Source: a bacterium (GTDB taxonomy: Bacteria; Arandabacterota; Arandabacteria; Arandabacterales; Arandabacteraceae). Taken from it: a DNA stretch of 64,000 nucleotides. The position numbers were made by a program, and so were the translations under genes. A model generated the notes under the pieces. The model did not search any database, had not been told where the DNA came from, and worked only from the letters and a program-made list of their open reading frames with translations. Where the stretch lies: NCBI GenBank assembly GCA_025774405.1, contig JALGWB010000001.1, forward strand, positions 16,609 to 80,608. Direction: 5' to 3'. Positions 2,031-52,313 of the stretch are shown one piece after another (position 1 is the stretch's first letter; each line of letters opens with the position of its first letter).

Positions 2031-2315
2031 TCACATATCTCTTCCGTCTCTCCTCCTTATGGAATCACGCAACTCCTCAATCCAGCACCAGTCTGGCAGA
2101 CCATAGCTGTGTCTCACTATGACCAGACCAGGGAATCGTTTCCTACCTATTCCTTGAGAAGTAGCGCACTCCATAATGTCAATATAGCCTGGGTCACCAG
2201 ACATAATGACATTCAACTCATCCTCTATCTTGGGCAATTTCGCCAGTAATCCCAACAGTGGAGTGGTCGCCAGTGCTTTTACAAACTCGCGGCGATTCAT
2301 CTCTCCTCCTATCAC
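2031..2315 (-). CDS. hypothetical protein
   Basis: 94-aa ORF in operon. Confidence 0.4.
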   Translation of the reverse strand: MIGGEMNRREFVKALATTPLLGLLAKLPKIEDELNVIMSGDPGYIDIMECATSQGIGRKRFPGLVIVRHSYGLPDWCWIEELRDSIRRRDGRDM

Positions 2316-2326
2316 ACGTGCAATTG

Positions 2327-2569
2327 TTAGTCTGCTACAAGATAGGCATGCTCTATCAGATACGTGTTCTCTGCCAGCAAATCGTCGGTTGATAAGAATT
2401 CACCGCAGGTAGGACAATGGGTAATGTATTCACCCGCAGTTGGGCTTTCTTCCTCCTCATCCCTATACTCTGGCCTATATCGAATCCCTGTCCATCGATA
2501 CACGAGCCAGATTCTGTGACCGCATCCGTGCCGCATGAATACCATAGCCGGGTCCTCCTCGCTAGTCAC
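2327..2569 (-). CDS. small zinc-ribbon protein (CGH...CPTCG)
   Basis: 80-aa ORF with Cys/His pairs. Confidence 0.4.
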   Translation of the reverse strand: MTSEEDPAMVFMRHGCGHRIWLVYRWTGIRYRPEYRDEEEESPTAGEYITHCPTCGEFLSTDDLLAENTYLIEHAYLVAD

Positions 2570-2573
2570 TCCT

Positions 2574-2828
2574 TCACAGAATATCTATTAGCCTAGTTCG
2601 AGCGGCCGATCTATCGCTTCGAACTGGCGTCTCGTCGCTACTGAGATGCAAATCTGTCACCAGCCAGTCTATCTCGTTCTTGCCCGTGATGTCCTTCTCT
2701 ATTGCACGCAGTGTCGACGAAAGTTTTGAGATGGCTTTGGCAAAATCGTCAAGTGAAACTTTGCCCTCAAGATGAATCGCCAAACTGTCTTTGTCCATGT
2801 TGTTGTTCCCCACACTTACTTTTGTCAT
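2574..2828 (-). CDS. hypothetical protein
   Basis: 84-aa ORF in operon. Confidence 0.4.
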   Translation of the reverse strand: MTKVSVGNNNMDKDSLAIHLEGKVSLDDFAKAISKLSSTLRAIEKDITGKNEIDWLVTDLHLSSDETPVRSDRSAARTRLIDIL

Positions 2829-3028
2829 CCCATCGCCTCGCTAACAACACCGCAATAAGGTTGTCAGTATCCTAGCCACAGAGAGGACTATGACGCGGGC
2901 GTGGCTCGCCTGCTTCCGCTAAGGGATTTTGGTTGCCCACGGTAAGCTCAGCTATGCCCCTGTATCATCCCAGACCGGTTGCCACACATACATATATCGG
3001 GCATATTATGCCGCCCGCGCCTTGTCCT

Positions 3029-3379
3029 TTAGCCTACACGATTGTTGATTTCATTTACCTCCTTCAGTACCCTCTCCAATCTTACAAGGATGTTGTCATT
3101 CAAAACCTGGGTACAGTTGTCAAGCCGCTGAATCACTTTTGTAGGCTTGGGTATGACCAGTTCTGTTCCCTCGCCGTTTTGAGAGATTCCCAAAACATCC
3201 TCGATATAGCAGAGCCGCCTTTGAATCCGGTCTACACAATCACAGAGTGTCGCAACCTTCACTTCGTCAATCGCCTCTGGATTTCTCATCGTAGCATCCT
3301 CTTGTAACGCTGTCCCACCATAACATCCCAGTGTCATTACTTCCCCTATCCCTGTCGCCTCTGGCCCTAAGATAACCAT
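3029..3379 (-). CDS. hypothetical protein
   Basis: 116-aa ORF. Confidence 0.4.
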   Translation of the reverse strand: MVILGPEATGIGEVMTLGCYGGTALQEDATMRNPEAIDEVKVATLCDCVDRIQRRLCYIEDVLGISQNGEGTELVIPKPTKVIQRLDNCTQVLNDNILVRLERVLKEVNEINNRVG

Positions 3380-5723: not shown

Positions 5724-6031
5724 GACTCATCCCACCTTTCTCTGTCTGCTCTGTTTTGCCATTCTGATACCCAGTTAGGCATGGGTTCCAATTTCTCACC
5801 CCGCAGGCGAGCCTCCTCCTTGAGCCAAGTGTCCTCAGCCTCGTCGTCCAATTCAACAAAGGGACCTCGGAAGGGGCCTTTGCGATTCTCTAGTTCTTGA
5901 AAGAAGGCTTGGTCCATAACCTCCTCTAACTCTTCAGACAATTCAGGCGTTCTCACTTTGCCTCCTTTACCAAAGTAACATCGACGGAAGAAATACTTAC
6001 TCCGACTTGAAAGCGGGTTTTGTGCCTCCAA
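5720..6031 (-). CDS. hypothetical acidic protein
   Basis: 103-aa ORF. Confidence 0.35.
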   Translation of the reverse strand: MEAQNPLSSRSKYFFRRCYFGKGGKVRTPELSEELEEVMDQAFFQELENRKGPFRGPFVELDDEAEDTWLKEEARLRGEKLEPMPNWVSEWQNRADRERWDES

Positions 6032-6333
6032 AACCGCATAATGCCGCTCGGATACTCACAGTCTGTTCGTAAAATGGGAATAAGGTTGAAGAGACTTTTG
6101 GGAACCGTCTCCTCAGTAAACTTCCAATTTACATCATCACAGTAGGCGGCTATCTCAGATATCCACTTTTCGCCTATTCGTGTCACTCCCACGACTGCAA
6201 TTTGCATGAAGCCGCTCTCATGCTTGCGACGTGTGGGGACAAGATATAGCCAGTCGTAAGTCGATACTTCGTCCCAAGGCCTTTCAGGTAGGCTCAATAG
6301 GGCCTTATGGGTGATCTTACCTAGAACTTCCAT
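5953..6333 (-). CDS. hypothetical protein
   Basis: 126-aa ORF; true start may be internal to avoid overlap. Confidence 0.35.
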   Translation of the reverse strand: MEVLGKITHKALLSLPERPWDEVSTYDWLYLVPTRRKHESGFMQIAVVGVTRIGEKWISEIAAYCDDVNWKFTEETVPKSLFNLIPILRTDCEYPSGIMRFWRHKTRFQVGVSISSVDVTLVKEAK

Positions 6334-11612: not shown

Positions 11613-11842
11613 TCAACAGTAACCAACCGCTATACATAACATGTGTAAACAATCATACGGCTTTTTGACTCTGGCCTATTAAAGAATAGAGTAGATTTCT
11701 CGGTGGGACGGAGACAGAATCCTTGTAAACGCATAAACATCCTACGCCCCGTTGACGTATTATCGTGTGAATCTAGCCTAATTCTACTATAGCACAAACG
11801 TACACGGTTGTCAAGTCCCAATTTCACCCCCACCTATGGGCG

Positions 11843-11917
11843 TCGTTATGTCTAGTGGCTATGAGTGTCGTTATGTCTAGTGACTACCCTCGGACAGCTA
11901 CCCGCGGACAGCTACCC
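11843..11917. repeat. two pairs of short direct repeats (GTCGTTATGTCTAGTG x2, CGGACAGCTACCC x2) in the 450-bp intergenic region
   Basis: Exact 16-nt and 13-nt tandem duplications read directly. Confidence 0.6.
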
Positions 11918-12009
11918 TCGGATAACTATCTATGAAACCCTATCCAGGCCAGGCAACCGAGCAAGACCACTATTGCTATCCCCGCCTCGACAGCCAGAAT
12001 CTCCCAAAT

Positions 12010-17759: not shown

Positions 17760-17840
17760 AACAGTCTCCTTGCTAGTTGTTGTTAGTCATTGGTCACTTA
17801 GTCTCTTAGTCGCTCTAGGCTAGTATTCTCTCTAGCCTCT

Positions 17841-18782
17841 CTAACCTAGTATTCTCTCAAGATGGTTGCCAAAATTGCTATGCCCTGCCCTCTTGAGATA
17901 CTGTAAGCCGAGAACAGTCAGCTTGCGTCCCCGCCCTGTAATCTCAATAAGAGCCTTTCGCAGCAACAAGGGCTCATAGATCTCCTTGATAGTTCTCGCG
18001 TTCTCGGCTAAGGCTCCTGCTAAGGTCGATGCGCCTGCTGGCCCTCCCCCAAACATTATACCAAGAACCATCAGGTACTTTCTCTCCTCAGGCCTAATTC
18101 CCAAGAAGTCTATCCCCAAACTAGACAGGATTTCGCCGATGTCAGAAGCCGATGCCTGGTTAGTCACGTCCCTGACACGTCTCAGCAGATGGTTCGCGAT
18201 CCTCGGCGTGCCCCTGGCCCTTTCTGCCAAAGCCTCACTAGCACCTGGCTCCAGCGTCACGCCCAGTGCTGCTGCTGAGTTCTCGACAATCTCGGCTAAG
18301 TCCTCAGTCGGATAGAAGTCCAGTCTCAGTCTCAGAGGAAACCTGGTTCTGAGGGGGGCTGTTACCTCCGCAGGCCGCGTTGTGGCTGCTATGATAGTCC
18401 CTCGAGCGCTTCGATCCATTAGGTTTGCCAAACGCTCCTGGCTATCTATGTCCAGAGCATGAACCTCGTCTATGAAGATGAACTGAACGGATTCAGGTTC
18501 CCTGCTTCCTAGTTCTCTAGTTAGGCCTGCTTCCAAGTCATCATAGTCTTGGCCTGTAACTCTGACAAGGTCCTGGCCTCCTACCAGCCTAGCCAGCGTC
18601 GTCTTGCCGAGCCCTGGTGGTCCAGTCAAGAGAAGGTGATCAAGAGGTTCTGACCTTCCCTCGGCTGCCCCCAGGGCCCTTCGCAAGACATCTTTGATTT
18701 GTTGCTGGCCAATAAAGTCCTGCCAGGCTTGGGGGCGGAGTTTACTATCGAGCATTGCTATTGACAATAGAGTGCAAGCCAT
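17841..18782 (-). CDS. RuvB-like AAA+ ATPase (Holliday-junction branch-migration-type motor)
   Basis: LRPQAWQDFIGQQQIKDVLRRALGAAEGRSEPLDHLLLTGPPGLGKTTLARLV closely parallels the RuvB N-terminus; Walker B FIFIDEVH; RTRFPLRLRLDFY sensor region. Start trimmed to an internal Met because the first 55 codons are Cys-rich and overlap gene 18794..18988. Confidence 0.65.
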   Translation of the reverse strand: MACTLLSIAMLDSKLRPQAWQDFIGQQQIKDVLRRALGAAEGRSEPLDHLLLTGPPGLGKTTLARLVGGQDLVRVTGQDYDDLEAGLTRELGSREPESVQFIFIDEVHALDIDSQERLANLMDRSARGTIIAATTRPAEVTAPLRTRFPLRLRLDFYPTEDLAEIVENSAAALGVTLEPGASEALAERARGTPRIANHLLRRVRDVTNQASASDIGEILSSLGIDFLGIRPEERKYLMVLGIMFGGGPAGASTLAGALAENARTIKEIYEPLLLRKALIEITGRGRKLTVLGLQYLKRAGHSNFGNHLERILG

Positions 18783-26477: not shown

Positions 26478-27056
26478 CTATGTTATGCTCGCGTACATTT
26501 CTGGTTTGTGTGTTTTTATCCAAGTGGCTGCGTTTGGTGGGTGTGTGCCCTCACCTCGCCAACTGATGCCGCCGCCGTTTGTGAGCTCGAGGATGTCGGC
26601 CATAGAAGCCCAACTGGAGTAGCTAACGCCCTCATAGGTGGGTTTGCGTATACCTCGACTGTCACCGTTGCCACGTGGTCCGCCCGTGGACCCCTTGCGC
26701 TTTTTTCCATAGACGGTTTCTATTCTGTCTATGGCAGCGGTGCCGTCCTCACGTCGGCCAATGCAGAAGCTAGTTATGGCGTCGGGTATGGCTACGCTGT
26801 TGACCCGTTCGAGGATCGCTTTGGCACATGGCGCGAAATCCGCCGATAGCTTCTCTATGAGCTCATCGTGAATAGACCGCTCCAAAGACCGAATCTCACG
26901 GGTTAGCGATCCGATAGTCCGAGCGAACATTATGGGATCTCTCTCCTCGAGATCGTAGCGCATGTCCTTCAAAGTTTCCAATTGTAACAGTGTTGCCGAT
27001 GGCGTTTTGGTCGCTGCCACTTTACTAGTTATCGCCGTCGTCTTCTCATTAGGCAT
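26478..27056 (-). CDS. hypothetical protein, first gene of the leftward operon
   Basis: 192-aa ORF bordering the divergent control region. Confidence 0.45.
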   Translation of the reverse strand: MPNEKTTAITSKVAATKTPSATLLQLETLKDMRYDLEERDPIMFARTIGSLTREIRSLERSIHDELIEKLSADFAPCAKAILERVNSVAIPDAITSFCIGRREDGTAAIDRIETVYGKKRKGSTGGPRGNGDSRGIRKPTYEGVSYSSWASMADILELTNGGGISWRGEGTHPPNAATWIKTHKPEMYASIT

Positions 27057-27437
27057 GTCATTCCCTCCACATGCGTGACGCCGGCGGCCTAGCCTAGAGT
27101 CGATCCATATGGAGGTTGATCGGTCGCGGAGGTTCCTCCCCTCCCCTCACCCTCGCCCAACACCTCATTTTTTAAGGTACTCAAACCTACCCCCATGATA
27201 GTCCTCGTGATGTAGATGTCAAATCCGCTATTGTAGCGATGTGCGGTCGGTTGCTGTTTTCTATACCATAACACGACGACTCAAAAGCAGGTTTTCCTGC
27301 TTTATGGGAACCCTGGCGCAGGAAAGTGAGATGGGGATGGATAGCCCCAGCCTCCATTTCCCCCATGTCTGAAACTTTTCCCTCTGCATAACAGCGTAAA
27401 CGACTACAACCCGCTGCTAAGGACTAGGCTAGACCGT

Positions 27438-27507
27438 AGTTCACATAATGGTTATTAGCGGTTGGTTTACATAATGGCTATCTGTCTGTGGGTAGTTTAC
27501 ATAACGG
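27438..27507. promoter_or_regulatory. three direct repeats of GTTyACATAAyGG spaced about 26-31 bp apart, immediately upstream of the rightward promoter (4th copy at 29423-29433)
   Basis: AGTTCACATAATGG, GGTTTACATAATGG, AGTTTACATAACGG read directly. Confidence 0.55.
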
Positions 27508-27535
27508 CTAGATAACCACTAGCCAAAATTGGGCC

Positions 27536-27564
27536 TTGACAAGAGTGCCAATTAGGTGTATAAT
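27536..27564 (+). promoter_or_regulatory. consensus sigma70-type promoter TTGACA-17 bp-TATAAT
   Basis: TTGACA at 27536-27541, 17-nt spacer, TATAAT at 27559-27564; faces the rightward gene block. Confidence 0.6.
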
Positions 27565-27613
27565 AGTAATTGCTAGGCTAAAGGGCAGGCTGGGCAATCT
27601 ATGTAGTGGCATC

Positions 27614-27723
27614 CGAGAAGTCGGCTTTTTCTCTCAGGCAACCAGGAAGGAAGTTCATTCCTTCCCCCTGTTTGGATGCCCAGGGTTGCCCTTGGTTGCC
27701 TGAGAGAAGAGGGCGACTTCTCG
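27614..27723 (+). other. large imperfect hairpin (about 30-bp arms) enclosing a second 7-bp palindrome, in the leader between promoter and first rightward gene
   Basis: Left arm CGAGAAGTCGGCTTTTTCTCTCAGGCAACC pairs with right arm GGTTGCCTGAGAGAAGAGGGCGACTTCTCG (24/30); inner GGAAGGA-AGTTCAT-TCCTTCC. Confidence 0.5.
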
Positions 27724-27772
27724 TGTTATAGGCGATGCAAATAGGAGTAACCAGTAGATAAGCCGATTTGCT

Positions 27773-28513
27773 ATGAAGGAAATTCCCCTCACGCAGGACA
27801 AGGTGGCCCTGGTTGATGACCAGGACTACGAATGGCTTAATCAGTGGAAATGGACGTATACTTCTAGGGGCTGCACAGGCTATGCTTATCGGAATGTCTA
27901 TCAAGGCTCCCGATATGTTAGGTGTGTCTTTATGCACCGTTTCATACTGAATCCACCTCCTGGCTTGGAGACAGATCATATCAATGGCAATGGCTTGGAT
28001 AACCGCCGTTGCAATCTGCGTGCGTGCACACATATCCAGAATTCATGGAATAGCCGCAAGCAACAAGGCGCTACGAGTCAGTACAAAGGAGTCTCCTGGG
28101 CACGGAAAAACCAATGCTGGAGGGCGTTTATACATCAAGGTGGTCAGCAGATATCGTTAGGCAACTTTGACTCAGAGGAGGCCGCAGCGCTTGCCTACAA
28201 CTATGCTGCGATCAAACTACGGGGTAGCCATACTCTTCTCAACCTTGTCCCTGACGGCCCTCCTCCATCCCGTCGACTAAAAAAGCGTCCAGGAAAGACT
28301 TCTCGCTATGTAGGAGTCTCCTGGTCTCGCCAACCGCAAGGTTGGCGAGCTGAGATTCGAGTTAAAGGCAAGCTCATATATCTGGGTTGCTTCACCTCAG
28401 AGGATGAGGCAGCGCGGGTCTGGAATGCGGCAGCGCTGAAGTGGAGAGGACCAGGAGCCAAGCAAAACATAGTACAAGGAGAAAGAGATGAATTTCTTGT
28501 TGAGCGAAGTTGA
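27773..28513 (+). CDS. HNH endonuclease with two AP2 DNA-binding domains
   Basis: HNH core HRFILNPPPGLETDHINGNGLDNRRCNLR; AP2 repeats YKGVSWARKNQCWRAFI and YVGVSWSRQPQGWRAEIRVKGKLIYLGCF. Confidence 0.8.
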   Translation: MKEIPLTQDKVALVDDQDYEWLNQWKWTYTSRGCTGYAYRNVYQGSRYVRCVFMHRFILNPPPGLETDHINGNGLDNRRCNLRACTHIQNSWNSRKQQGATSQYKGVSWARKNQCWRAFIHQGGQQISLGNFDSEEAAALAYNYAAIKLRGSHTLLNLVPDGPPPSRRLKKRPGKTSRYVGVSWSRQPQGWRAEIRVKGKLIYLGCFTSEDEAARVWNAAALKWRGPGAKQNIVQGERDEFLVERS

Positions 28514-29411
28514 GTTGTCAAGAAAGCCAAGGCTCTCTTTTTCATGGAGCGAGAAGCCTGTGCCTGTTCCCTATCACCGCCCACGAGACCCAGAGAGAAG
28601 GAAAAGATACTGTAATTTCTATTCTACTGAGATCGGTCTCTTAAGCGGTAGTCGGGTTTTCAAGCACGGGCCATGTGGAATCTTTCAAGGACCCGACCCA
28701 TGCCCTTCCTGCAGAGCAAGCCGCAAGCGAGAGATTCGCCTCGACTTGTCTTTGGCAAAGGAGATTTTCTATTTCTATGTACTTGCCCCCTCCAAAACAG
28801 AATGGGATACTCTCACCAAATACTGGAAGCGTCACAACATTCTCTTCAAGTGGTGCTATCAGGGCGAGAACTTGCTCCGACTGGTCTTTCTCAGTGGATT
28901 CGACGAACGGATAGGCAAAAGAGGGGCCACTAGGGCGTCGAGTCTCAACTCTGTCTCACTTGACATGATAAGCCTCGATACAATCATGAATCAGATGCCG
29001 TTAGGGTCGAGTTTCCATGGAACATTGAGGGCCTCAAGGGGAGGAAGAGGGAAGCCAGAAGACGAGCAGACCGAGGATGTTCCCCCTGTACCTAAAGAGG
29101 CAATCCCCATAGAGGTCTTTTATGTTAAGGCTTCTCCTGGGGTCGAAGACGAAGCCTGGGATGCCGCCATGGAGAAGTCTTTGGATCTCAACCCGAAAAC
29201 TAGGCAAGAGCTTATCCAGGGAGTCAGGAGACGCTGTGCTATTTATAAAGCGGAGCTGATTGCTAGGAATGCTGTTATTTCATATTCTCGCTGGGAGAAA
29301 CGTTATGTCCAAATAGCCCTATTGGATTGGGAATCCTACAATTCTATCTGGACAGCTGCCCATGAGAGGGCATTTAGTTTTGCCCTACCTAGCCGTGCTT
29401 ATGTCAATTGA
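28488..29411 (+). CDS. hypothetical protein (position compatible with a terminase small subunit, unproven)
   Basis: 307-aa ORF between the HNH gene and terminase; no recognisable motif. Confidence 0.45.
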   Translation: MNFLLSEVELSRKPRLSFSWSEKPVPVPYHRPRDPERRKRYCNFYSTEIGLLSGSRVFKHGPCGIFQGPDPCPSCRASRKREIRLDLSLAKEIFYFYVLAPSKTEWDTLTKYWKRHNILFKWCYQGENLLRLVFLSGFDERIGKRGATRASSLNSVSLDMISLDTIMNQMPLGSSFHGTLRASRGGRGKPEDEQTEDVPPVPKEAIPIEVFYVKASPGVEDEAWDAAMEKSLDLNPKTRQELIQGVRRRCAIYKAELIARNAVISYSRWEKRYVQIALLDWESYNSIWTAAHERAFSFALPSRAYVN

Positions 29412-29627
29412 CTAGCACGGCTGTTTACATAATCCACGATCTACTACATGGGCCTGAGCCACTAGAGTGGCCAGGTCTGAAAGGTGCTGTTTAAGAAATG
29501 TTTCTCTACTTCGCGCCAACACTCGGAAACTTCCTTCTCTGTCTGGTTTTTTTCCTGGCAGGTTGTCTCTACCTCTACAGTAAATGGTAGGCAGGGCCAG
29601 CAATCCATCTCAGTAGATACGACCTGC

Positions 29628-30155
29628 CTAGCTGCGTCTGGCCCCCCTCACTGCTGTCTTATGACCGATACCTATCTTCTCCTCAATCCAAATGCGTGTA
29701 TCAGGATGCAGTTGCATCTTATCCTTATTCGCCTGGTACCAAGTCTTGGTATTGTCTTCGTAACCCTGTGCCTTGCCAGCTCCCCGCCAATCTGCCAACA
29801 TCTCTTTTCGGTAGCGATCAGGCATAGGTAAGACCTTGATATCACCATCATCCTCTCGCAAAACCCACCATTGCCAGTGATGCCTATTGCGATGGATGTG
29901 CTTGAGCCAAGCTAAGTCGAACTTGTCCTGCACCTCCTGTTTCGTCAGACCGAAGAGCCGCCCCTTGGTCCCTGGCGCGAATCTGTGCCAATCGGGATAG
30001 TTGCCGTAGAAGTATTTCGTATAGGGCCGCCATTCATCAGGCAGGAACTTGCTCCAATCATGCAAAAAGCCCAACCAAGGTATGCCTAACTTGCATGCCT
30101 CAACGAACACAAACCACTTATGTGCAATCATGTAGCGTAAATATTTCAGATACAT
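29628..30155 (-). CDS. hypothetical His/Trp-rich protein (HIHRNRHHWQWW)
   Basis: 175-aa ORF on the opposite strand inside the late region. Confidence 0.5.
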   Translation of the reverse strand: MYLKYLRYMIAHKWFVFVEACKLGIPWLGFLHDWSKFLPDEWRPYTKYFYGNYPDWHRFAPGTKGRLFGLTKQEVQDKFDLAWLKHIHRNRHHWQWWVLREDDGDIKVLPMPDRYRKEMLADWRGAGKAQGYEDNTKTWYQANKDKMQLHPDTRIWIEEKIGIGHKTAVRGARRS

Positions 30156-30725
30156 CTACTGCCTCCTTGCCCACCTCGCCGCTGGATCAACCCAGGCTCC
30201 CTTGTTATCCACTGCCAACTGACTCTTCAGTACAGCCAATATCTCGTCCCTCAGCGCAAACCTCTGCTCCACGGGCAAATGTCTGGCCACTATCTCGGTT
30301 ACTTTCTTGGCCATGGTTACAGCCACACTGACAGGAATCAGATAGCGTCGCTCTTGCTCGATCTTGTTCTTGGTCTGAACTAGCTTCCGAATGGTGTCCA
30401 GCAGCAAGGCTAAGGTCCTCAAGTCTCCCTCTTTCTCAGCCTCAACCACCTTCTCCCTCGCTAGGGCAATCTCCCCCCTCAATTCCAACACCTCAGGGTC
30501 TTCGAGCTCCTGGCTTGACAGTTCTACCAAGTCCACAGGCTCGGCTACTGGCAATCGCTTGTCATGCAACCAGCAATAACCGACCCCCTTGTGGTTAGTT
30601 CTGGCTCCTGCCCATCTGTGACAGATGCCGTCTTTGCCTTCTTTGCAAGGCGCACCACAGATTCTGCTCGGATCATTGCGGGCTTTGGCAAGCCCAATTC
30701 TCACTTTGTCTGTTATCATGGGCAT
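30156..30725 (-). CDS. hypothetical protein with CxC...C..H cluster
   Basis: 189-aa ORF contiguous with the previous gene; CGAPCKEGKDGICHRW...GYCWLHD. Confidence 0.5.
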   Translation of the reverse strand: MPMITDKVRIGLAKARNDPSRICGAPCKEGKDGICHRWAGARTNHKGVGYCWLHDKRLPVAEPVDLVELSSQELEDPEVLELRGEIALAREKVVEAEKEGDLRTLALLLDTIRKLVQTKNKIEQERRYLIPVSVAVTMAKKVTEIVARHLPVEQRFALRDEILAVLKSQLAVDNKGAWVDPAARWARRQ

Positions 30726-30800: not shown

Positions 30801-30843
30801 TTGTCAAGCATACTTGACAATTCAGAAGTTTGCTGCTAAGATA
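30801..30843 (+). promoter_or_regulatory. perfect palindrome TTGTCAAG-cata-CTTGACAA whose right half supplies a TTGACA -35, followed 16-17 nt later by TAAGAT; candidate regulated promoter of the terminase operon
   Basis: Palindrome at 30801-30820 read directly, 14 bp upstream of terminase RBS/ATG at 30857. Confidence 0.45.
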
Positions 30844-30856
30844 GAGACGAGAAAGA

Positions 30857-31717
30857 ATGGAGACTAAAGGCATGGAGACATCCTGGGACGCTAAAAGTCC
30901 ACGCGCAGCCCTTGTTGAAACCTTCCTGACTGGCCTTGGCGAGGAGAAGACCAAGCCCAGGCGAGCTCGTCGGGACTTTGCATACTTCATAGAATATGTC
31001 TTTTCTGATCAGAGAGGAAAGCCCCTCAAGCTTCAGTGGTTCCACAGGCAAATGATCAAATATCTGATGTTTGAGAAGAGGGTGCTGGTACTCTTGCCGA
31101 GATCGTGGGGGAAAAGTACCATAGGCTCAGTAGCCTATCCGGCCTGGCGTCTTGGGGTAAACCGAGACCTCAGAATTATCATAGCATCAAATACTATAAC
31201 GCAAGCTAAGTGGTGGTTATCTGAGATCGAGAACTTGATGCTCAAGAATGATAACTTTCACGAGGTATTCGGCTTCATGGTTCCCAAGCCTAGGACGCTT
31301 CGCTGGACTGATACCGAGAAGCGAGTACTTGGGCGTTCTCCTTACGCTATGCACTCCTCACTTCTAGCCACGGGCATTGGTAGTGCATTGCTAGGAGCTA
31401 GAGCGGATGTTATCATTGCCGATGATTGTATCGGTGAAAGAGAGGCCATTTCACCTATCCAGCGCAAGCAAGCCTCGACCTGGTTCTGGAAAGTTCTCCT
31501 CAACACGTTAGAGCCTGATGGCCAGGTGGTCGTCCTCGGCTCTCCCTGGGGGCCCAATGACCTCTACAAGGAAATCCAGGAGAGATGGAAGGATCTCCCG
31601 TCTGAGATGGCTACCTGGCAACGAGGCGACTTCGTTATGCCAGGGGATTATCCCAGCCAAAGTCAACTGCGTAAGATGGAGCGAGAAGGCAGCCTGGACC
31701 CACTGAGGAATGTTTGA
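30857..31717 (+). CDS. terL: terminase large subunit, ATPase domain (separate ORF)
   Basis: Walker A LLPRSWGKST, Walker B ADVIIADD, coupling motif VLGSPWG; ends at a TGA stop with no nuclease domain. Confidence 0.75.
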   Translation: METKGMETSWDAKSPRAALVETFLTGLGEEKTKPRRARRDFAYFIEYVFSDQRGKPLKLQWFHRQMIKYLMFEKRVLVLLPRSWGKSTIGSVAYPAWRLGVNRDLRIIIASNTITQAKWWLSEIENLMLKNDNFHEVFGFMVPKPRTLRWTDTEKRVLGRSPYAMHSSLLATGIGSALLGARADVIIADDCIGEREAISPIQRKQASTWFWKVLLNTLEPDGQVVVLGSPWGPNDLYKEIQERWKDLPSEMATWQRGDFVMPGDYPSQSQLRKMEREGSLDPLRNV

Positions 31718-31779
31718 TAACTTAGCCCCACTAGAACCTAGACCCACTAGAGAATGTTTGATAACTTTGAGGAGGGAAA

Positions 31780-32268
31780 ATGTTTGACGACGTGATAGTA
31801 ACTGACAAGTATGGAGCTCCAACAATGAGAGGGGAAGTGACCAGATATGGTCTCGTAACAAAGAATCCTGATGATGTCAGAGGTGGCCTATACTGCTGGT
31901 ATAAGCTAAAAAAGGCAGATGAATTTCTCCTCGCCTACAGGATCGAGGCAAGTAAAAAGCCCGTAGTTGAGCACACAGATGTGGAGGAGTGGTATCCTGT
32001 TACGCTCAGAGAGTCTTTCAAGATAGCAGGAAAAGGGCGATTCATGTTCGAGGAAGGAGAAGGGCCCCATATCTGGTTCAGACTCTCGACGTTTACCACA
32101 CCTAACAGGCTGAGGGCCAGGATAGCCGCAGTCAGGTCTGGCTGGCAACGATTCAGGCTTGCAGTTAAGTTTCTAAGAAGACGCCTTCGGGAAACCCTGG
32201 AGATTCTGAAGCCTGTCTATCGAAGAAGTGCCCGTCTCACTAATCCCCTCAGATGGCCTGGATATTAG
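31780..32268 (+). CDS. hypothetical basic protein encoded inside the insertion that splits the terminase gene
   Basis: 162-aa ORF with its own GGAGG RBS; no recognisable homing-endonuclease motif. Confidence 0.4.
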   Translation: MFDDVIVTDKYGAPTMRGEVTRYGLVTKNPDDVRGGLYCWYKLKKADEFLLAYRIEASKKPVVEHTDVEEWYPVTLRESFKIAGKGRFMFEEGEGPHIWFRLSTFTTPNRLRARIAAVRSGWQRFRLAVKFLRRRLRETLEILKPVYRRSARLTNPLRWPGY

Positions 32269-33185
32269 GGAGCATCGCCCCGATAGGCTGGGGGGAAGAG
32301 CATTGGAGGTTTATTATCGCTGGCATCTTGATCATACCTGCTCTAACGAACGACTCAGAAGGTAACCAGATCTCGAATTGGCCTGACCGCTGGCCTCTGA
32401 ATCGTCTCCTGGCTAAGAAGCAGGAGATTGGTCCCATCCCTTTCTCTAGCCAGTTTATGCTTGATCCCGTTAACTTGGAACACGCATTCCTCAAACGGGA
32501 ATGGCTGCAATTCTACCTAGATGAAGACCTTCCTGACCTTATCAACTATATCGGAGTGGACCCGTCACCCTCAGGCAGGCAAGGTACTGACTACTTCGCC
32601 CTCGCTGTTCTAGGGGTAGATGTTGCCCATGTGGGATATCTCGAATCTGCCTACCGCATCCAAATCGATCCCCTGGAGCAGGCTCAGCGTATCCGCATTG
32701 AGGCGGGGGTCTGGCATCCAGCTTTAGTCATGGTAGAAGCCGTGGCAGCTCAAGCTCTCTTTACTCGCTATATGCTTCAGGACGTTACCTTTCCTCTCCG
32801 CGAGGGCACGACCAGATTTCCCAAGGAGCTTCGCTATGTCTCAATGTCTCGCTTATTCGCAAGTGGCAGAATCAAGATCAGAGGCAAGCGAAACAGTGAC
32901 GGCGAGATCGTGCCTGCTGACTCTGTTGCCGACTTTGTTGAAGAGTGGGTAGGCTATGCGCCTAAGGGGCCTCGGGACGACACTTTGGATGCTGTCGAGA
33001 AGGCTATTGAGGCCTCTCAGCTAATCTCAGGCAATCCTGTATTCCAGGCATCTCGCCCTGAAAATGTTCCTGTGGGTCGGGGGACGCATCCTGGACTTGC
33101 AAGTGGCGGCAACTTGCTGAGAGGGACCCGAACGCCATTTGGGAACAGGCAGCTGCGCTCGCGGCGATCCCTAGGGAGACGATAG
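32253..33185 (+). CDS. terL: terminase large subunit, linker plus RNase-H-like nuclease domain (separate ORF)
   Basis: FSSQFMLDP linker motif followed by YIGVDPSPSGRQGTDYFALAV (first catalytic Asp region of terminase nucleases). Confidence 0.7.
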   Translation: MAWILGSIAPIGWGEEHWRFIIAGILIIPALTNDSEGNQISNWPDRWPLNRLLAKKQEIGPIPFSSQFMLDPVNLEHAFLKREWLQFYLDEDLPDLINYIGVDPSPSGRQGTDYFALAVLGVDVAHVGYLESAYRIQIDPLEQAQRIRIEAGVWHPALVMVEAVAAQALFTRYMLQDVTFPLREGTTRFPKELRYVSMSRLFASGRIKIRGKRNSDGEIVPADSVADFVEEWVGYAPKGPRDDTLDAVEKAIEASQLISGNPVFQASRPENVPVGRGTHPGLASGGNLLRGTRTPFGNRQLRSRRSLGRR

Positions 33186-52005: not shown

Positions 52006-52224
52006 ATGGCCTTAGATTCCTTCCTAGGACTTGACAAGCGCAGCATAACCGGTTATAATGAAGATAACAAAGCTCATCCCATAGTGCGGGCCTGGATTAG
52101 CCAACTAATTCAGTCTAAAGAGCTAGCCCTGGTCCTAGACAGGTATGAGTTTCGGCGTATCGATGTGACGCTCTCAGCTAGTGGAGGTAAGGCGGTACTC
52201 AAACCGACGATCTCGTTTCGCTAA
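52006..52224 (+). CDS. hypothetical small protein
   Basis: 72-aa ORF between the protease-like domain and the capsid gene. Confidence 0.3.
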   Translation: MALDSFLGLDKRSITGYNEDNKAHPIVRAWISQLIQSKELALVLDRYEFRRIDVTLSASGGKAVLKPTISFR

Positions 52225-52313
52225 TCACATAACCGCTCGCAATAGGCGGAGCAACTGTTTTGTAGTGAGGAGGAGACTACAGCCTCCTCTCTTTCATTCT
52301 AAGGGAGGTAACA

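Follow-up and report, generated by a model that had tools for sequence, protein, structure and literature searches.

A probable divergent control region between the arms of an uncharacterised tailed-phage genome

Layout of the locus and its relatives

The DNA analysed here, a stretch of 64,000 nucleotides (the window), is part of Ga0366832_1000270, a JGI metagenome contig of 87,282 bp, which looks like an uncharacterised two-armed tailed-phage genome of ~87 kb. The two arms are separated by a 716-bp non-coding interval (27057-27772). ORFs of the minus-strand arm extend from position 1 to 27056 and include those for a RuvB-like ATPase, a DNA methylase, an XPD-type helicase, a PD-(D/E)XK nuclease and an ERCC4 nuclease. 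ORFs of the plus-strand arm run from 27773 to ~59500, with terminase and portal among them. At ~27 kb the GC skew shifts together with the coding strand.

A DNA search of annotated phage records gave no match, and the sole match in the phage database was the portal of a Microcystis phage, at 29% identity. Word-indexed protein searches with gp192, a flanking gene, and with ORF307 returned only self-matches, and in IMG/VR nothing was found when gp192 or the N-terminal terminase gene (TerL-N) served as single-protein queries. TerL-N has homologues at 60-81% identity. Relatives L018, L019, L020, L021 and L022 were taken from contigs carrying TerL-N homologues and from a scan of IMG/VR using the TerL-N alignment, and L052 and L053 were added via proteins of the ORF307 family. 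In L022 (IMGVR_UViG_3300029813_000617, 91 kb) the N-terminal part of the terminase is 71% identical to that of the window, and the orthologous control region lies at 5850-6320. Four blocks are common to both control regions: block 1, one box, the -35 region of a promoter (ATTGGGnCTTGACAA) and a hairpin. The features of the locus and of the adjoining genes are as follows.

27195-27222, minus strand: PL, leftward promoter serving the minus-strand arm (TTGACA-16-TATCAT, 11/12)
27306-27359, no strand assigned: block 1, GGGAACCCT-N23-TGGATANCC-N7-CCATTT, between the divergent promoters
27383-27395, plus strand: box 0, a degenerate box (TCTGCATAACAGC) aligned to the single box of L022
27439-27451, 27465-27477 and 27495-27507, plus strand: three exact boxes, GTTYACATAAYGG (exact matches)
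27536-27564, plus strand: PR, rightward promoter of sigma70-type consensus (12/12)
27571-27772, plus strand: predicted 5' leader of the PR transcript, ~200 nt, delimited by PR and the start of the HNH gene
27614-27723, plus strand: compound hairpin of ~110 nt (inverted repeat, RNA fold, covariation)
27614-27623/27714-27723, plus strand: outer stem of the hairpin (fold)
27626-27638/27699-27711, plus strand: invariant core of the hairpin, TTTTTCTCTCAGG / CCTGAGAGAAG, identical in the window and L022
27639-27644/27693-27698, plus strand: inner stem of the hairpin (fold)
27645-27665 and 27666-27685, plus strand: apical hairpins, enclosed by the arms
27773-28513, plus strand: HNH_3 gene with two AP2 domains, 246 aa (Pfam and PHROGs matches, phrog_99)
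28488-29411, plus strand: ORF307, last gene of the PR unit, conserved, no function assigned by domain
29423-29435, plus strand: fourth box, GTTTACATAATCC, 11/13 positions, 12 nt after the ORF307 stop codon
30779-30842, both strands: divergent promoter pair directly upstream of TerL-N (minus strand 30807->30779; plus strand 30814-30842, with TG motif)

Promoters, cargo genes and the limits of the PR unit

PR carries both hexamers of a sigma70-type promoter (TTGACA and TATAAT at a spacing of 16-18 bp), with TTGACA at 27536-27541 and TATAAT at 27559-27564 across a 17-nt spacer, and the perfect promoter reported in the original prediction was thereby confirmed. The orthologue in L022 (6099-6127) reads ATTGGGnCTTGACAA...TACGAT, matches the consensus at 10/12 positions and has a TG motif. 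By this alignment PR is conserved in L022, and the transcription-control region that had been proposed here appears genuine. A sigma70-type RNA polymerase of the host would be expected to start at ~27571. On the other side of the interval, PL has positional counterparts in L022 (5891->5862) and L019 (153->125, 11/12), and the first gene of its arm is located at 26478-27056. Together, PL and PR flank a stretch of conserved, non-transcribed DNA that holds block 1 and the boxes. PR is not the sole textbook sigma70 promoter in the 64 kb, as had been stated, since a second 12/12 TTGACA-17-TATAAT site is present at 52031-52059 on the plus strand. Near-consensus sites with up to two mismatches are enriched window-wide (12 vs 2.5 expected).

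The unit downstream of PR consists of the HNH gene and ORF307. It is 1.9 kb long and ends against two convergent minus-strand genes at 29628-30725, which encode a DUF5662 protein and then gp189 (189 aa). TerL-N starts 3.1 kb downstream of the PR region, and its promoter has counterparts in L018 (4658-4686), L022 (9915-9943) and L019 (1172-1200). Because the minus-strand genes intervene and the TerL-N promoter is conserved in three relatives, PR is not regarded as the promoter of a terminase, packaging or late operon. The sequence comparison indicates that the terminase operon has its own conserved promoter (30814-30842) and is not driven by PR. The proposed late or terminase-region control element has thus to be redefined as the promoter of a two-gene unit. 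Its placement upstream of the terminase holds in a loose sense only, with the two minus-strand genes and the divergent promoter pair lying between.

By its domain architecture, the HNH-AP2 protein is a free-standing endonuclease of the homing type. Four relatives have contigs that extend this far, namely L022, L018, L052 and L053; the comparison covered the upstream genes of the first three, and all of these lack the HNH gene here. The slot between leader and ORF307, occupied by HNH-AP2 in the window, holds an unrelated 136-aa gene with a GTG start and two small ORFs in L022 and at least four small genes in L052. In L018 no cargo precedes ORF307, and an array of ~800 bp with a 36-bp period is found upstream instead. 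Since a different gene follows the hairpin in L022 and each relative has other cargo, the HNH gene is accessory, swappable cargo, probably a mobile insertion, and not a packaging factor. The HNH gene and TerL are 2.3 kb apart, and of the three genes that separate them two run in the opposite direction. An identity with the packaging HNH of HK97-like phages was rejected, as the protein is of the HNH_3 type with two AP2 domains, is not encoded next to the terminase and is missing from the three relatives named above. Domain type, position and accessory status together remove the basis for HNH-assisted cos cleavage, which had been suggested from the neighbourhood of HNH gene and terminase.

ORF307 has homologues in L022 (7501-8334, 29% identity) and L018 (3114-3914, 34%). 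An exhaustive search recovered only 12 representatives among 1.84 billion proteins, none of which could be tied to a Pfam domain, and the AlphaFold model of ORF307 (pLDDT 35) was unusable.

The hairpin in the predicted leader

The arms of the hairpin (27614-27644/27693-27723; 31 nt each, 90% complementary) form the longest inverted repeat in the window, and RNA folding of 27608-27729 gave -74.2 kcal/mol (z = -8.7). Both the long imperfect hairpin of the original prediction and the second palindrome enclosed by its arms, which corresponds to the apical hairpin at 27645-27665, were therefore recovered. The hairpin of L022 folds with -63.1 kcal/mol (z = -7.6). Along the 26-bp helix shared by the window and L022, 16 pairs are unchanged, five have changed in a compensatory manner and three have gone from C-G to U·G, and two U·G wobble pairs are shared by the window and L022. 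The helices flanking the core differ between the two sequences, yet remain paired. Across the two sequences, 96% of helix cells are paired, a value that drops to 42-55% if the 3' arm is shifted by 1-3 columns, and 17 of 500 column shuffles of the two-sequence alignment reached the observed covariation values. Compensatory changes as in a conserved structured RNA were thus found on two sequences, L022 being the only relative with the hairpin. A covariance model built from both hairpins scored them with 123-131 bits on the plus strand and 33-45 bits on the minus strand; beyond these two it gave no hit, either elsewhere in the window or in the relatives examined. Rfam 15 gave no match for the window and relatives at gathering or permissive thresholds, and an ARAGORN scan for tRNAs found nothing. 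When the pattern of the hairpin core was searched in IMG/VR, only L022 and one match within a coding region were returned; in GTDB genomes it occurred at 26 loci, which is near the chance expectation, and none of these was related. A small ORF over the hairpin was considered and rejected: window and L022 have different reading frames there and share no ORF in hairpin or leader.

Two levels at which the hairpin could act were compared, RNA in the plus-strand leader and DNA, where it might be a cruciform, an inverted-repeat site for a protein or a small mobile palindromic element. A DNA-level role would account for the 11-13-bp core that is identical on both arms in the two phages around a freely varying apical part, as such invariance could reflect recognition of an inverted repeat. 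However, the conserved U·G pairs and the changes from C-G to U·G would be mismatches in DNA and on the other strand, and the fold of the sense strand is more stable than that of the antisense strand, with -74.2 vs -64.7 kcal/mol for the window (a difference of 9.5 kcal/mol) and -63.1 vs -49.2 kcal/mol for L022 (13.9 kcal/mol). Further evidence against a DNA-level role is the single copy in the window and in all relatives' loci examined, together with the pattern matches in other genomes, which are unrelated and at chance-expected number. We therefore consider a role as DNA highly improbable. Covariation, conserved G·U pairs and a sense strand more stable by 9.5-14 kcal/mol argue that the hairpin most likely acts as RNA, and they lend support to the structured regulatory RNA that was one option of the original prediction. 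Overall, a regulatory role at the RNA level seems somewhat more probable than its absence. Another option of that prediction, a cos or pac site in the hairpin, is indicated by nothing at the locus, and the better folding of the sense strand favours RNA over DNA here as well.

What the RNA might do was judged from its surroundings. In L022 the hairpin is followed by the U-run ACUUUUUUGUUUGG (U-tract UUUUUUGUUU; fuller tail ACTTTTTTGTTTGG) and then by a ribosome-binding site, GGAGGG, and the GTG start codon of the 136-aa gene. Hairpin and U-run of L022 have the anatomy of a putative intrinsic terminator within the leader. The tail of the window hairpin (TGTTATAGG) contains fewer U residues. Thus, a stable stem is present in both phages, and the U-tract is full in L022 and degenerate in the window (UGUUAUAG). 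With no proper U-tract behind the window hairpin, termination would not be a property that the two phages share. One possibility is attenuation, in which a promoter-proximal terminator, strong in L022 and leaky in the window, would throttle a very strong promoter, so that the hairpin would set how much transcript reaches the cargo genes. Alternatively, the hairpin could be processed by RNase III, which would set mRNA stability or translation. An RNA duplex of 25-30 bp is a substrate of RNase III, and the near-continuous helices of the window (30 bp) and of L022 (25 bp) are both longer than the ~20 bp needed at least for such a duplex. We prefer neither of these mechanisms over the other. If the hairpin is an attenuator or a processing site, this would explain how a toxic homing endonuclease can lie behind a perfect promoter.

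Boxes, block 1 and comparison with known systems

The three 13-bp boxes of the original prediction are exact copies of GTTYACATAAYGG on the plus strand, where dinucleotide shuffles gave an expectation of 0.00. Their spacing was described as even, but is 26 and 30 bp; in L019 it is 38 and 13 bp. The repeat extends to ~21 nt, and the spacers between the cores have diverged. A conserved core between diverged spacers argues for selection on the core and against a recent duplication. The exact boxes are centred at about -126, -100 and -70 from the predicted transcription start, and all lie at least 28 bp upstream of the -35 hexamer. A simple repressor would not usually bind there, and an activator would be superfluous at a perfect promoter. 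The expansion to three boxes is specific to the window phage and falls in a gap of the alignment with L022, which has one box (CTTTACATAATAGG) upstream of its promoters, aligned to 27383-27395. L019 has three boxes and block 1 near PL, ~170 bp from gp189-TerL, with no cassette between.

A fourth copy had been noted after the next gene, and its 11/13 match at 29423 is not due to chance, as the position is kept in six loci. On the plus strand of all six (window, L022, L053, L018, L021 and L052), a box of the form TT[T/C/G]ACATAA[Y/A] or a variant with one mismatch stands at the stop codon of the ORF307-family gene or up to 12 nt past it. Because of this copy, the boxes bracket the PR unit, with 1.9 kb from box to box in the window and 2.3 kb in L022. 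The conserved cores, diverged spacers and conserved position support the earlier view of the boxes as protein-binding sites; these asymmetric sites are probably recognised by a sequence-specific DNA-binding protein. Bound on either side of the unit, such a protein, of phage or host origin, could act as a repressor, loop the intervening ~2 kb or form a roadblock where the unit ends. No box-binding protein was identified, and no regulators were found in the left arm among 37 ORFs of the window compared with Pfam and 20 compared with PHROGs (the sets overlap). The pattern of paired boxes had no match in IMG/VR and 16 unrelated chance matches in the metagenome collection, which does not include the source contig. 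The boxes were rejected as sigma70 promoters, since there is no -35 partner at 16-18 bp, and as target sites of HNH-AP2, since relatives carry boxes without the HNH gene.

The three patches of block 1 recur with the same sequence and the same spacing in the window, in L022 (5957-6010) and in L019 (285-338). It lies in DNA transcribed from neither PL nor PR and contains no conserved ORF; a function as RNA was rejected, the consensus fold reaching only -6.2 kcal/mol. In IMG/VR its pattern was found only in the known relative. Block 1 is probably a protein-recognition site.

For a packaging or replication site, block 1 together with the boxes would be the most plausible place left, though we regard packaging as unlikely here and replication as quite improbable. 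Packaging would require that boxes and block 1 bind the small terminase subunit, as a pac or cosB-like site, and that the DNA is cut nearby. In favour of this, boxes and block 1 co-occur in three phages, in L019 they lie close to gp189-TerL, and block 1 shows the fixed patch spacing typical of a DNA-protein site and lacks an RNA fold. The junction of phage arms is, moreover, a common place for genome ends, and TerL has a conserved neighbour in gp189 (30156-30725, minus strand), whose arrangement of zinc ribbon and coiled coil would suit a small terminase. However, gp189 is without a match in Pfam, PHROGs, PDB or fold searches (single-sequence model with pLDDT 56; no Foldseek match at E <= 0.001), the box spacing is not conserved between the window and L019, and a pac site would leave the box after every ORF307 stop codon unexplained. 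The 87-kb contig and the 91-kb contig of L022 both run through the region unbroken, which is not decisive, and the argument for a cos site from the HNH gene fails. The control region as a cos or pac site is unsupported, though it keeps a low probability.

A replication origin, with the direct repeats as iterons for an initiator protein at the point of the strand switch, would be in line with three or four direct repeats in non-transcribed DNA and with the change of GC skew at ~27 kb. Iteron plasmids also have a further repeat copy beyond the neighbouring gene, and L018 carries its ~800-bp array of 36-bp period at the equivalent place. However, as the skew change coincides with the switch of the coding strand, no origin is needed to explain it. 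Repeats are present, but their spacings in the window, 26 and 30 bp, are not helically phased; only one box occurs at the site in L022, no initiator was recognised, and ORF307 is without a recognisable domain. Even less probable, we consider, is the binding of an OmpR-family response regulator of the host, for example the cyanobacterial RpaB at HLR1 sites, by which the cassette would be coupled to host physiology. HLR1 consists of two imperfect octamers, (G/T)TTACA(T/A)(T/A), 2 nt apart, and has been reported in cyanophage genomes (PMC6525291). The box cores TTTACATA and TTCACATA match this half-site at 8/8 and 7/8 positions, and the only match in the phage database was to a Microcystis phage, although the host may not be a cyanobacterium. 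Partner octamers at +/-10 bp match only 2-4/8 positions, so that no HLR1 pair was found; the HIP1 palindrome of cyanobacteria (GCGATCGC) is absent from the window, the boxes of relatives (TTGACATAAC, TCCACATAAT) fit the half-site less well, and the box after the ORF307 stop codon does not lie in a promoter.

Taken as a whole, 27057-27772 is best explained as a conserved region of divergent control where the two phage arms meet, a reading that we hold with slightly more confidence than doubt. The features described in the original prediction largely hold; its connection of the region to late genes, terminase and cos lacks support. As an element the region is of an ordinary kind, in a phage lineage that has been sampled poorly, and its mechanism is one that we infer. 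The unit controlled by PR would be arranged as a cassette of PR, a leader of ~200 nt with the hairpin, a slot for variable cargo, the conserved ORF307 and a box after the stop codon. That this amounts to a new kind of phage expression cassette appears doubtful. On that reading, the consensus promoter followed by a cis-acting leader RNA may form a self-contained attenuator or antiterminator, or the leader may instead be a phage small RNA of ~150-170 nt with its own target. The asymmetric boxes at both ends may be sites of a monomeric DNA-binding protein that regulates the promoter and blocks elongation at the end of the unit, the slot may be the place where relatives exchange unrelated cargo genes, and block 1 may be an additional recognition site of three patches.

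For a phage lineage in which hardly any genes are annotated and database relatives are nearly lacking, the control region described here offers a first regulatory map. It comprises strong host-type promoters before each module, a conserved leader RNA outside Rfam and a short recognition box at both ends of a gene cassette. These findings overturn no current understanding; leader RNA and box-bracketed cargo cassette are modestly interesting new instances. If boxes or block 1 were a packaging or replication site, they would provide a handle on the genome ends of the lineage.

In phage lambda, the late unit PR'-tR' consists of a strong constitutive promoter and a short terminated leader RNA that is read through with the help of the Q antiterminator. 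The PR unit resembles it in having a consensus sigma70 promoter and a strong hairpin within ~170 nt, to which L022 adds a U-run before the first gene. Unlike in lambda, neither a Q-like gene nor, in the initial transcribed region, a conserved -10-like pause element was found, the window copy is without the U-run, and the unit is a 2-kb cassette instead of the operon for lysis, terminase and structural proteins. Hairpins processed by RNase III are known from the early mRNAs of T7 and the N leader of lambda. Here too, a long near-perfect RNA duplex with internal irregularities (25-30 bp) would form in the 5' leader of a transcript that starts at a strong host-type promoter, and its cleavage is putative; sequence similarity to known sites is lacking and the branched apical part is atypical. 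In HK97-like cos packaging, a small HNH gene lies directly upstream of terS/terL in the same orientation and is conserved among relatives. The locus shares with this arrangement an HNH-family gene in the general region of the terminase, but the gene is of the HNH_3 and AP2 homing type and lies 2.3 kb from TerL, with opposite-strand genes between.

With HLR1 sites bound by RpaB, the boxes share one half-site, the octamer TTTACATA (PMC6525291), but a paired second octamer in the 10-bp register is missing and the host may not be a cyanobacterium. Cluster A mycobacteriophages such as L5 have 13-mer operator/stoperator sites in more than 20 copies (PMC9283540). In the window there are four copies in 64 kb (five with box 0), none of which overlaps the -35 or -10 hexamers, the lineage is unrelated, and neither a repressor nor an integrase was found in the ORFs scanned. 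Hence the more than 20 genome-wide 13-mers and the cognate repressor of a stoperator system are not seen here, whereas the orientation and the position after a stop codon fit. Like stoperators, the boxes are asymmetric sequences of 13 nt, co-oriented with transcription, which occur near a promoter and again in the short intergenic space right after a stop codon. By analogy, the L5-type operator/stoperator system would be the closest functional counterpart of the boxes.

Block 1 and its surroundings in related phages

The control region (window 27057-27772) lies between the minus-strand left arm and the plus-strand right arm, and its conserved non-coding three-patch element, block 1, was compared between three phages. 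The spacing of the patches (N23 and N7) is exactly kept in the window, L022 (IMGVR_UViG_3300029813_000617) and the related phage contig L019, and in all three block 1 is always adjoined by the boxes, the short 13-nt repeated elements, and by the leftward promoter.

Positions of block 1, the three-patch element
Window: 27306-27359
L022: 5957-6010
L019: 285-338

Between the leftward promoter PL of the window and block 1, a stem-loop with 8 perfectly matched base pairs and a loop of 4 nt (AAAGCAGG TTTT CCTGCTTT) was found at 27284-27303; this stem-loop is absent from L022. L019 has a perfect 11-bp inverted repeat (ATATATTGTGG ... CCACAATATAT, 155-205) immediately upstream of its leftward promoter, and this repeat looks like an operator. 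The related locus L018 carries about 800 bp of non-coding DNA (2216-3040) where the control region would stand, with an array of about 16-23 units of 36-bp period and the unit form AGCGAGCC-n10-AGAAACCC-n10. Directly downstream of this array lies the homologue of ORF307, the conserved last gene of the rightward-promoter unit.

Two-ORF layout of the large terminase

Two ORFs encode the large terminase, both in the window and in all relatives (L018, L019, L020 and L021).

Positions of the two-ORF large terminase
Window: 30857-33185
L018: 4714-6894
L019: 1213-3306
L020: 3820-6203
L021: 2019-3444

The ATPase part measures about 285 aa, except in L020, where it reaches 475 aa; the nuclease part has 287-316 aa. 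The two parts are separated by a variable ORF of 162, 150 or 125 aa, which is absent in L020 and L021. This layout could represent either a conserved split terminase or an insertion hot spot.

Further promoters, repeats and palindrome avoidance in the window

A second promoter of the perfect TTGACA-17-TATAAT form, together with a leader of about 250 nt, was detected at 52031-52313. Its leader harbors a possible 47-aa ORF (52086-52226), whose stop codon is immediately followed on the 3' side by the box-like ATCACATAAC, and a terminator-like hairpin (GAGGAGG...CCTCCTC), then TCTTTCATT, upstream of an 892-aa gene. Short tandem repeats with periods of 25, 14 and 26 nt occur in other left-arm intergenic stretches (11786-11922 and 17783-17858), the first of which is adjoined by a near-consensus minus-strand promoter (11786-11814).

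Many palindromic hexamers are strongly depleted in the window as a whole: AAATTT, CCCGGG, CGTACG, TATATA, TCCGGA and TTTAAA were observed 0 times, where 13-18 copies would be expected, and several others have a single copy each. This avoidance is suggestive of a host with abundant restriction systems. GAGCTC and GATATC are over-represented.
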